Source of the DNA: Escherichia phage vB_EcoM-G3G7
Reading direction: 5' to 3' (one strand)
Sequence record: MZ234040.1
DNA: 64,000 bases
Shown one piece after another: positions 28,271 to 30,108 of this stretch. Every line of letters starts with the position of its first letter. Position 1 is the stretch's first letter. Below the pieces are notes generated by a model that was not told where the DNA came from, ran no database searches, and saw only the letters and a list, made by a program, of their open reading frames with translations. A program made the position numbers and the translations under genes.

Positions 28271-28326
28271 ATGCTTTAAGAATTATTTGTTATTATTAAT
28301 TCATCTGTTAACAAAAAGGAAAAACG

Positions 28327-28662
28327 ATGTCTGAAGTACAACAGCTACCAATTCGTGCTGTCGGTGAATATGTTATTTTAGTTTCTGAACCTGCACAAGC
28401 CGGTGATGAAGAAGTTACAGAATCAGGACTTATTATCGGTAAACGTGTTCAAGGTGAAGTTCCTGAACTGTGTGTAGTTCACTCTGTCGGTCCTGATGTT
28501 CCTGAAGGTTTCTGCGAAGTTGGCGATTTGACTTCTCTTCCAGTTGGTCAAATTCGAAATGTTCCGCATCCTTTTGTAGCTCTGGGTCTTAAGCAGCCAA
28601 AAGAAATTAAACAAAAATTCGTTACCTGTCACTATAAAGCTATTCCGTGTCTTTATAAGTGA
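28327..28662 (+). CDS. 31: co-chaperonin gp31 (GroES analogue for capsid protein folding)
   Basis: 111-aa [64 protein letters not shown]... matches T4 gp31. Confidence 0.93.
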
Positions 28663-28670
28663 TATAAATA
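28663..28670 (+). promoter_or_regulatory. possible T4-type late promoter (TATAAATA) downstream of gene 31
   Basis: Exact TATAAATA on plus strand, about 140 nt upstream of rIII. Confidence 0.35.
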
Positions 28671-28809
28671 ATAATATGAATTGGGTGTCGGAATAATAAG
28701 TTAACCGAACAATTCTATGTGGTAGTCTACAACTGAGAGATCTGTCGAAAGAAGATGAAATTCAGAAGAACGTGACTACCGAGTTTTAATCTCTAACGAG
28801 AATTTTTAA

Positions 28810-29058
28810 ATGATTAAACAATTACAACACGCTCTTGAACTGCAACGAAACGCATGGAATAATGGTCACGAAAACTATGGCGCATCTATTGATGTTGAAG
28901 CCGAAGCTCTTGAAATCCTGCGTTATTTCAAACATCTGAATCCTGCTCAAACTGCATTAGCTGCTGAGCTTCAGGAAAAAGATGAACTTAAATATGCTAA
29001 GCCTCTGGCTTCTGCTGCACGAAAAGCAGTTCGTCACTTTGTGGTAACACTGAAGTAA
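28810..29058 (+). CDS. rIII: rIII lysis-inhibition accessory protein
   Basis: 82-aa ORF at the T4 rIII position between gene 31 and the 30.x cluster. Confidence 0.7.
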   Translation: MIKQLQHALELQRNAWNNGHENYGASIDVEAEALEILRYFKHLNPAQTALAAELQEKDELKYAKPLASAARKAVRHFVVTLK

Positions 29059-29456
29059 TTTATTGGAGAGTCACTGCCTTAGTGTGAAGTTAAAACGAGG
29101 AGCCGTCGAACTGTCTGATTAATGATTTGCGAATCATTATAGTTTTAAGACCCCGGCAGTTTTACGGTGTACCTCTTGAATGTTATTCTTATAGCGGCAA
29201 GTGCATGCTACCCCGAGGTGATGGCCAATCGGGAGTACGCCTCAAGGCCTATATATCCATCAGTATATATCTTATCCTCGAGAAATCGAACCCGGAACCT
29301 TTAAGCTAACGGTGTGCAACAGATAAGAGCTATAAGGTATGATGACGGGTTTATGGTTATCCTGGTCGTTAAATATCAAAAAACCTATGTTCCCCTTGAG
29401 GGCTTGCGCAGGCAATGCCAATAAGTCCTGCATTTTCATTTAAAAGAGAATTTATA

Positions 29457-29633
29457 ATGGCAAAACAAGCTAAAGCAAAGAAAGCAGTTGAAAAGAAAGT
29501 TGGTGATTCTAAACGCGCTGGCTACAAGCGTGGGTCGAACTCTCGTATCAATCAAACTGTTGAGAAGATCATGCGCCGAGCACGTGCGGTTCTTCGAGAT
29601 GATGCTTCTCGTTTTGGTAAGCAGAAAGCATAA
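29457..29633 (+). CDS. small highly basic protein (MAKQAKAKKAVEKKVGDSKRAGYKRGSN...), unknown function
   Basis: 58-aa ORF (alternative upstream ATG at 29415 gives 72 aa); followed by a strong terminator. Confidence 0.5.
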   Translation: MAKQAKAKKAVEKKVGDSKRAGYKRGSNSRINQTVEKIMRRARAVLRDDASRFGKQKA

Positions 29634-29638
29634 GTTGA

Positions 29639-29667
29639 GGACTCCTTCGGGAGTCCTTTTTTATTTT
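29639..29667 (+). terminator. intrinsic terminator
   Basis: GGACTCC-TTCG-GGAGTCC hairpin followed by TTTTTTATTTT. Confidence 0.85.
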
Positions 29668-29686
29668 CCAAAGATTGCATAAAGTT

Positions 29687-29716
29687 GTTTACAGTATGGT
29701 TCCTTTGTGATAGTAT
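29687..29716 (+). promoter_or_regulatory. T4-type early promoter
   Basis: GTTTAC at 29687-29692, 18-nt spacer with TGTGA, TAGTAT at 29711-29716. Confidence 0.55.
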
Positions 29717-29743
29717 TATCTTACACAAACAAAGGAGAATAAA

Positions 29744-30076
29744 ATGAAAACGATTAATCTGAACGCTGCAGTTAAAACTAAATGCTTCAATGGTAAATAT
29801 GATGAAACTATGTGGTTCTTAATGGCAGTTGAAGGTGATATTATTGAAGTAGAAACAACAGAAGGTATGGGAACAGATTTCACCTTTACAATTCAAGTTC
29901 ATAATTTCTTTACTGGTTGGATTTATGAATTGAATACAGTAATCGTTGGAAAAATTGAACAAAATGAATTAGGTGAATGGTATTATGTTACAGCTCGCCA
30001 ACGTGCCGAACGCTTAATTGAGAAGATGAAAAAAGTTGGTAAACTTGACATGCAGCATTGGAAAGTAGTAAAATAA
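29744..30076 (+). CDS. early protein, unknown function (110 aa)
   Basis: AAGGAGAATAAAATG context. Confidence 0.6.
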   Translation: MKTINLNAAVKTKCFNGKYDETMWFLMAVEGDIIEVETTEGMGTDFTFTIQVHNFFTGWIYELNTVIVGKIEQNELGEWYYVTARQRAERLIEKMKKVGKLDMQHWKVVK

Positions 30077-30078
30077 TT

Positions 30079-30108
30079 GTTTACTTTGGTACAGGATATG
30101 ATATTATA
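30079..30108 (+). promoter_or_regulatory. T4-type early promoter
   Basis: GTTTAC at 30079-30084 and TATTAT/ATTATA around 30102-30108. Confidence 0.5.

Follow-up and report, generated by a model that had tools for sequence, protein, structure and literature searches.

Few viruses are as well studied as phage T4 and its relatives, which also find wide use in phage therapy. The leader RNAs closest to the element considered here are that of the T4 gene 32 mRNA, in which a 5' pseudoknot is combined with an AU-rich operator and which is autoregulated by gp32, and the leaders of bacterial ribosomal-protein mRNAs. Among larger folded RNAs, the lysine riboswitch (with its L2-L3 contact), the cobalamin riboswitch, the VS ribozyme and the phi29 packaging RNA are multi-way junctions with loop-loop contacts, and bacteria and phages also produce small RNAs (sRNAs) that are embedded in, or derived from, 3' untranslated regions (UTRs). 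Promoter-early/stem-loop composites (PeSL) are short cassettes that mediate modular shuffling in T4-type phages (PMC2839356, PMC4122927). Here we describe the spacer between genes rIII and 30.9 (positions 29059-29456) in a 64,000-nt stretch of Escherichia phage vB_EcoM-G3G7 (MZ234040.1), a Tequatrovirus genome segment referred to below as the window. This spacer is a conserved, fully structured, non-coding + strand RNA built of exchangeable modules, designated A, B, C, D, E and G, with covarying stems. The modules fold separately, behave among T4-like phages as cassettes that come, go and change order, and are each at least as conserved as the flanking genes. The central one, module C, is a new and well-supported RNA fold, and with its companion modules it is a new, unannotated structured-RNA family in the T4 group.

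The elements of module C are as follows.

29186-29337, + strand: module C, an autonomous 152-nt RNA domain identified by covariation and a covariance model
29188-29195 with 29329-29336, + strand: helix P1 of module C
29196-29198 with 29247-29249, + strand: helix P1a of module C
29207-29216 with 29229-29240, + strand: helix P2 of module C
29250-29256 with 29263-29269, + strand: helix P3 of module C
29270-29276 with 29322-29328, + strand: helix P5 of module C
29278-29281 with 29286-29289, + strand: helix P4 of module C, with a GAAA loop
29290-29294 with 29310-29315, + strand: helix P6 of module C
29219-29224, + strand: P2 apical loop UGAUGG, the 5' half of a loop-loop (kissing) helix, pairing with 29257-29262
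29257-29262, + strand: P3 loop CCAUCA, the 3' half of the loop-loop helix, pairing with 29219-29224

RNAalifold, applied to an alignment of 30 distinct module C sequences, gave 44 pairs, 21 of which showed compensatory changes. The apical P2 pairs of this prediction (GG..CC) were rejected in favour of a covarying helix between the P2 and P3 loops, and the pairs were recounted after the exchange. The refined model comprises 47 pairs in 8 helices, with 99.0% of cells paired and double changes in 24 pairs. None of 500 shuffled controls reached the observed value on any of five measures, and controls in which the pairing partners were slid gave 28-42% pairing (maximum 42.5%), so that compensatory pairing in module C exceeds the controls; module B, with 13 sequences in RNAalifold, has 25 pairs of which 5 are compensatory. 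In the 6-bp loop-loop helix all cells are paired and three of the six pairs show double changes (variants UGAUGG/CCAUCA, CGAUGG/CCAUCG, CUAUGG/CCAUAG and CAAUGA/UCAUUG), the last variant being the form in which a divergent copy (L061, model score 108 bits) retains it.

In the resulting fold, P1, P1a-P2, P3 and P5 meet in a linker-free four-way junction, and P5 opens to a three-way junction bearing the P6 hairpin and P4, a 4-bp hairpin with a GAAA, GUAA or UAAA loop. The long unpaired runs CGGCAAG.GCAUG, CCCGGA and GCUAACGGUG.GCAACAGAU are invariant, while the closing stem P1 is free in sequence and constant in its pairing. The stems include G-U pairs (73:80 is UG in 28 of the 30 sequences and 96:108 in 7) that would be A-C mismatches on the other strand, and the + strand RNA is therefore the folded species. 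The initial annotation, made from the sequence of the window, had offered a structured small RNA as one of several readings and had noted several short palindromes; the former gains strong support from covariation, and the latter are the stems of conserved hairpins.

Module C matches no described RNA family. The covariance-model search and structure prediction that had been recommended for the segment yielded the covarying fold and no match in Rfam: there was none in the window with Rfam 15 at gathering thresholds, only terminator-like or chance matches in 28600-29750 at E values up to 10, and a 9-bit snoRNA fragment as the sole match to the isolated region 29180-29345 at the same cutoff. ARAGORN found no tRNA or tmRNA gene in the window, and homology to the T4 stable RNAs rnaC and rnaD was rejected, as the module C covariance model had no match in the T4 tRNA/rnaC/rnaD region. 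The model scores 182 bits on its single copy in the window, and a search for a second copy with filters off returned nothing above 12 bits. With blastn, module C had no match in 5,426 E. coli genomes or in plasmids, and a conserved 21-mer from it is absent from 185,579 bacterial and archaeal species (one genome each); an origin from the host, or mimicry of a host RNA, is thus unsupported. Candidates from a relaxed 18-mer search (L085-L087) were chance matches in coding sequence with zero model score, and a metagenome match (L032) was spurious. Full-text searches of the literature turned up no account of an RNA element between rIII and 30.9. The text of a large catalogue of candidate viral RNA structures makes no mention of T4-type phages, although bulk lists of this kind might still include the motif (PMC10690425).

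Module C resembles the riboswitches, ribozyme and packaging RNA named above in its closing stem and multi-way junction, in its GNRA-type tetraloop and in the covarying 6-bp loop-loop helix that connects two of its arms, but the Rfam models of those RNAs had no match at E values up to 10 and the layout of the secondary structure differs. The loop-loop helix of module C may be intra- or intermolecular. T4 packaging is not known to require RNA.

Module C was found in 407 phage records, in 397 of them at a coverage of at least 80%, from the genera Tequatrovirus, Dhakavirus, Jiaodavirus, Moonvirus, Karamvirus and Roskildevirus. It is optional, being present in ~400 of roughly 1000 T4-like records, and is 75-95% identical across genera. 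Against Mineola it shows 88% identity, compared with 69-76% for gp31 and rIII, and against Cronus 75%, compared with 57-66% for the neighbouring genes. T4 lacks module C and differs from the window by a clean 153-nt indel, and among near-identical Tequatroviruses its presence can be the sole difference. The initial annotation had overlooked this mosaic: the central 152 nt are a discrete cassette, present or absent among near-identical phages.

A copy with 84.5% identity is carried by PKM.Lu.22.1, an unrelated 76-kb phage of the Grimontviridae, where a stop codon precedes it and a pre-existing hairpin and terminator follow it, upstream of an ECF sigma gene. The sister phage PKM.Hi.22.6 is 98.8% identical in the flanks and lacks exactly module C, including the P1 stem; the insertion into PKM.Lu.22.1 is recent. 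The hairpin that follows the insertion is module A, ~90% identical to the Jiaodavirus copy and present also in Salmonella phage 7-11. Our best guess is that C is an autonomous RNA domain exchanged horizontally. A transposon-like or MITE-like (miniature inverted-repeat transposable element) identity was rejected, since its inverted-repeat ends (P1) are of free sequence and there is no duplication at the T4/window or PKM.Hi/PKM.Lu junctions. The suggestion that the segment is a degraded mobile-element or intron remnant likewise failed, as purifying selection acts on every part of it, Rfam models of introns and ribozymes give no match and terminal repeats of fixed sequence are absent.

The remaining modules of the window, and the orders in which modules occur elsewhere, are listed below.

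29065-29090, + strand: module A, a short hairpin with stem UCAC/GUGA (29071-29074 with 29084-29087) and a conserved 9-nt loop, UGCCUUAGU
29096-29183, + strand: module B, a long irregular hairpin, CGAGGAG...CCUCUUG, with inner hairpin UAAUGAUU-UGCG-AAUCAUUA
29338-29389, + strand: module D, a putative H-type pseudoknot, in every rIII-30.9 spacer examined
29344-29349 with 29361-29367, + strand: module D stem S1, GACGGG with CCUGGUC
29355-29358 with 29382-29385, + strand: module D stem S2, GGUU with AACC, with a conserved A-rich linker, GUUAAAUAUCAAAA
29389-29406, + strand: module E, hairpin GUUCCCCUUGAGGGCUUG, almost universal, on either side of C according to lineage
29408-29431, + strand: module G, hairpin GCAGG/CCUGC with a conserved 14-nt loop, CAAUGCCAAUAAGU
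Order in the window: A-B-C-D-E-G
Order in T4: A-B-D-E-G
Order in Mosigvirus: A-B-I-D-E-G
Order in Jiaodavirus: J-D-A-C-E-F-H
Order in Moonvirus: C-D-E-F-H
Order in Karamvirus: E-C-D-K-H
Order in minimal forms: D-E-G or E-D-K-H

In an alignment of the window with T4 and Mosigvirus ATK47, nearly invariant blocks (29059-29184 and 29338-29456) flank a slot of variable content: nothing in T4, a 45-nt element in ATK47 and 153 nt in the window. A further 39 loci were gathered through gp30.9 and others through DNA patterns; all phages with rIII beside 30.9 have a spacer of 120-416 nt, which always includes module D. Each module motif occurs once in the window, and the modules are therefore locus-specific and not dispersed repeats. 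Stem variants between lineages are UCAC/GUGA, UCGC/GCGG, UUGC/GCAG and AGC/GCU for module A, CCC/GGG, GCC/GGC and GCU/AGC for module E, and AACUGG/CCAGUU in STML-198 and L073 for module G, whose loop is retained there; these compensatory variants of A, E and G were read by eye from the sequences. S1 of module D covaries as GAC/GUC, GUG/CAC, GUC/GAC and GUU/AAC. S2, in which the loop pairs with sequence following the linker, varies as AGUAGUU/AACUACU, UUGUGAG/CUCACAA, GAUGG/CCAUC and CAAGGUU/AAUCUUG, and its core, with 14 distinct pairs, has 72% of cells paired in register, slid controls reaching no more than 65%. D-E-G leads directly into 30.9 and is retained where rIII stands before that gene; its identity to the Mosigvirus counterpart is 95%, compared with 87-91% for the genes. 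In other lineages the position of module G is taken by a different hairpin (F, K or I), and STML-198 has a shortened module B.

The spacer modules resemble PeSL in being short, conserved, non-coding cassettes of T4-like phages with indels or replacements at their boundaries (PMC2839356, PMC4122927), but they carry no early promoter or terminator, are single-copy, and show RNA-type covariation that includes tertiary pairing. An early sigma-70 promoter with a stem-loop, in many copies, was not found in 29059-29456.

The surrounding + strand order is gp31 (28327-28662), rIII (28810-29058), the gap, 30.9 (ATG at 29457), a terminator (29637-29668) and 30.8 (29744-30076). Region 28300-29750 is matched by 990 phage records, with 100% identity in Yersinia phage PYPS2T and several Escherichia phages.

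28810-29058, + strand: rIII coding sequence (CDS), an 82-aa open reading frame (ORF) annotated as rIII in T4 and relatives, the upstream context of the gap
29444-29633, + strand: weak ribosome-binding site AAGAGA followed by gene 30.9 (ATG at 29457; 58 aa, basic), homologous to T4 NP_049823
29637-29668, + strand: intrinsic terminator with a 9-bp stem, 5 of its pairs GC, followed by TTTTTATTTT; also annotated in JB75 and ATK47

The flagged segment is thus the rIII-30.9 intergenic region. It had been delimited as 29059-29414; the start stands, whereas the non-coding stretch probably extends to 29456, because the ATG at 29415 only opens an in-frame, unconserved N-terminal extension and the conserved 58-aa gp30.9 begins at 29457, the start that matches T4 NP_049823. 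The G+C enrichment that had been reported is real: 29059-29414 has 0.438 against 0.362 for the window, which places it at the 97th percentile among 356-nt windows, and module C by itself has 0.467. The gap is also the longest stretch without any ATG-initiated ORF of at least 50 aa, window ends excepted. The small basic ORF and strong terminator placed at its end proved to be gp30.9 and a 9-bp GC-rich hairpin with a T-run (29637-29668). Alignment to T4, also recommended, showed that the segment does not replace 30.9-type ORFs, as had been considered: the small basic ORF is 30.9 itself, and T4 has a homologous gap of 244 nt with nothing annotated inside and the central 153 nt absent.

A scan for the sigma-70 consensus and for intrinsic terminators found neither inside 29059-29456, and the only terminator follows 30.9. 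With no promoter of its own, the spacer would be made within a polycistronic cd-31-rIII-30.9 RNA ending after 30.9. A paper on the RIII protein cites a 2003 paper by Driukas and Nivinskas (Biologija) on rIII/30.9 expression (PMC9409239). Around the spacer, a T4 late-promoter consensus, TATAAATA, stands just 3' of gp31 (28664-28671), the terminator after 30.9 is followed by an early-promoter-like site, TTTACA..TAGTAT (29637-29716), and a second promoter-like site precedes 30.7 (30077-30107). The sites around 30.9 and 30.8 look like PeSL terminator/promoter composites.

We favour, with a probability of roughly 45%, a reading in which the array acts in cis on its own transcript, D-E-G being the leader or operator of 30.9 and A, B and C accessory domains. 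The spacer would be transcribed as part of the cd-31-rIII-30.9 RNA and act as RNA; D, E and G, or their lineage substitutes, followed by the ribosome-binding site, would form a translational operator or stability element for 30.9. As a candidate ligand of this leader we infer, purely on the pattern of the gene 32 leader pseudoknot and the ribosomal-protein leaders, the basic and mostly disordered gp30.9 itself. A, B and C may be accessory domains of the same transcript, and C, with its four-way junction, loop-loop helix and GNRA-type loop, would most likely bind a protein or other partner through its invariant unpaired nucleotides. An earlier suggestion of a regulatory leader is, on this reading, plausible for the 30.9-proximal third only.

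D-E-G resembles the gene 32 leader in placing a putative H-type pseudoknot 5' of an AU-rich ribosome-binding region; as in the leader systems, the downstream product is small, basic and likely to bind nucleic acid, and the leader is conserved above the level of coding DNA. In many lineages the 30.9 ribosome-binding site lies within a hairpin (UCUCCAAUAUGGAAGA). The gp30.9 family occurs in T4-like phages only, and no Pfam, PHROG-function, PDB or named homologue was found; its AlphaFold2 model (mean pLDDT 72) has a disordered Lys/Arg-rich N-terminus and one helix at residues 29-53, which is compatible with a nucleic-acid-binding peptide and is not evidence for one. The spacer differs from the gene 32 and ribosomal-protein leaders in lacking sequence or Rfam similarity to them and in consisting of three or more consecutive modules, the choice and order of which depend on genus. 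In addition, unlike in those systems, distant homologues of 30.9 occur without the leader, and binding of gp30.9 to its leader is putative.

Several observations weigh against a cis-acting leader. The order of the modules varies by genus, which speaks against one fixed cis mechanism. Distant 30.9 homologues stand directly after gene 31 without D or E (L079, L082 and L083), so that D-E-G is not obligatory for 30.9; these loci (30.9 at ~1201) have no rIII and a spacer of 45-110 nt. S2 of module D has only 4 bp (GGUU/AACC) in T4-type sequences, the window included, and the single-sequence folding energy is unremarkable (z = -1.8 for module C and -0.8 for the whole spacer). Finally, module C of PKM.Lu.22.1 sits in a 3' UTR, ~60 nt upstream of the pre-existing terminator, a position that an autonomous or trans-acting RNA fits better than a leader does.

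On the strongest alternative, C, and possibly A and B, would be a stable trans-acting non-coding RNA (ncRNA), released or embedded in the mRNA, which serves as a sponge, decoy or scaffold for host or defence proteins and is swapped between phages as an accessory function in the way that anti-defence genes are. This is possible but unlikely. Besides the transfer to the 3' UTR of an unrelated phage, it accords with the optional and polymorphic occurrence of C, with a closing stem that is always paired and free in sequence, with the variety of neighbourhoods and module orders in which C is accommodated, with its many invariant unpaired nucleotides and tertiary loop-loop helix, and with its absence from the E. 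coli genomes, plasmids and bacterial and archaeal species searched. On the other side, C has no promoter or terminator of its own, no processing sites are evident, and neither a known partner nor a co-varying protein gene was identified. In PKM.Lu.22.1, C and A lie between a stop codon and an intrinsic terminator like sRNAs embedded in 3' UTRs, and in T4-like phages the whole array falls in the final 600 nt of the operon transcript; C differs from such sRNAs in having no evident processing, Hfq- or ProQ-type features or seed region, and in its far more elaborate fold. A wider joint claim appears doubtful: that C is a new class of autonomous trans-acting phage ncRNA, either a decoy or inhibitor of host defence or RNA-binding proteins or a new ribozyme, that the 150-nt cassette spreads across T4-like and unrelated phages, and that the spacer is a docking site which collects A, B, C, I, J, F and K.

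Should the modules prove to be functional RNAs, they would add to the T4 group a set of conserved structured RNAs, including one of ribozyme- or riboswitch-grade architecture, and RNA domains would join genes among the cassettes swapped between phages. They would also provide a concrete handle on the function of gp30.9 and make it possible to test directly whether RNA-based accessory functions, anti-defence among them, are carried in the variable regions of phages.

A catalytic role for C, as a new self-cleaving RNA or otherwise, in processing the transcript between rIII and 30.9 is highly improbable. Phage genomes often house small ribozymes, and C is autonomous and portable, with a compact multi-helix junction, a tertiary loop-loop contact and strictly conserved junction nucleotides; however, no Rfam ribozyme matches even at E values up to 10, nothing indicates a cleavage site, and 150 nt exceeds most self-cleaving classes. 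A riboswitch aptamer for a metabolite or signalling nucleotide, controlling downstream expression, is very unlikely too. Although the P1-closed multi-stem junction, conserved unpaired nucleotides and pseudoknot-like tertiary contact would suit one, and C lies 5' of a gene in T4-like phages, no conserved expression platform with alternative pairing follows C, but rather D, E, J or A according to lineage, which argues against a classical riboswitch. In PKM.Lu.22.1, moreover, the downstream hairpin and terminator are unchanged from the relative without C, and no Rfam riboswitch matches.

Explanations at the level of DNA or of coding are unlikely. For the former (a middle or late promoter, replication origin, recombination or homing target, or cruciform), very little probability remains. 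One GenBank record places a 10-bp 'ori type 2 repeat' here, module boundaries behave like recombination joints, and GCTTG in module E is, in our own reading, vaguely MotA-box-like; yet the stems tolerate G-U and not A-C and are thus strand-specific, a loop-loop helix and pseudoknots make no sense in duplex DNA, the sigma-70 consensus scan found no promoter-like site, and oriA, C, E, F and G, the known origins of T4, lie elsewhere. That the segment encodes one or more small proteins is scarcely credible, despite unconserved mechanical ORFs of 34-60 aa (TTG-initiated, 60 aa; GTG, 45 aa; minus-strand ATG, 55 aa; ATG, 34 aa), CDSs annotated over it in JB75, Mineola and others and a 97-aa form of 30.9 in UniProt, for all 30 distinct module C homologues have at least one stop in each of the six frames, close relatives differ by single-base indels within D-E-G (such as CCTGGTCG against CCTGTCG), the stem substitutions are compensatory and not synonymous, and the central ORFs are wholly missing from T4.

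Neither a conserved open frame nor a pattern of multiple-of-three indels was found for module C or for the extended 72/97-aa form of 30.9; the homologues of C are 149, 152, 153 and 161 nt long, differences that are not multiples of three. The segment is also not a frameshifted known ORF, an outcome the initial annotation had allowed for. A conserved AUGAUG 5' of module D was rejected as the start of a leader peptide, as the downstream frame is unconserved and proper Shine-Dalgarno spacing is lacking. Public records leave the spacer unannotated or wrongly coding: hypothetical CDSs are annotated across module C, some records call the 30.9 region a '1,4-alpha-glucan branching enzyme', and UniProt has the 97-aa form as an '11.1 kDa protein in Gp30-rIII intergenic region'. 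The CDSs over module C, the branching-enzyme label and the 97-aa form look like annotation artefacts (window 29115-29309 and 29415-29456; records MH355584, NC_055748, NC_054935 and OR352949), and our alignment and covariance model could correct spurious CDS calls in hundreds of genomes.

A further module lies upstream, in the spacer between gp31 and rIII.

28721-28780, + strand: module F, GGUAGUC-UACAAC-hairpin-GAAGAACGUG-ACUACC

Module F stands upstream of 30.9 in Jiaodavirus and Moonvirus (85-92% identical), with a version in Roskildevirus that has a shorter hairpin, and is part of the same pool of shuffled modules. The gp31-rIII spacer (28663-28809) is similar in style, with a hairpin at 28679-28713, module F and a small hairpin at ~28790-28803 that covers the ribosome-binding region of rIII; the Shine-Dalgarno sequence of rIII, GAGG, is sequestered as CCUC-AUUU-GAGG in other genera. 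Module A (GGUGAUUUGC-UACCUUAAGU-GCAGCUAGAAAAU) is common, at ~90% identity, to T4-like phages and the Grimontviridae phages 7-11, PKM.Hi.22.6 and PKM.Lu.22.1; in the latter group it is flanked by a stop codon on one side and, on the other, by the terminator that precedes an ECF sigma-factor gene (L010 1497-1736; L089; L090 480-600). The ACCCCGG...UUUUACGGUGU of module B (window 29096-29183) resembles the P6 hairpin of module C (ACCCGG...CUAACGGUGU; 29290-29315), and B and the 3' half of C could be related, or the likeness could be coincidence. Three more modules with conserved loops and varying stems take their place in this spacer in other lineages (L003 1621-1670; L047, L053, L067, L076 and L058): I is GCGUCAGAAAAAGGUUAUCUGUCUAAG inside a closing stem, J is CCCA-stem-UGUACG-stem-GUAAC and K is GAGAGGU-GUAAGA-CCUCUC.

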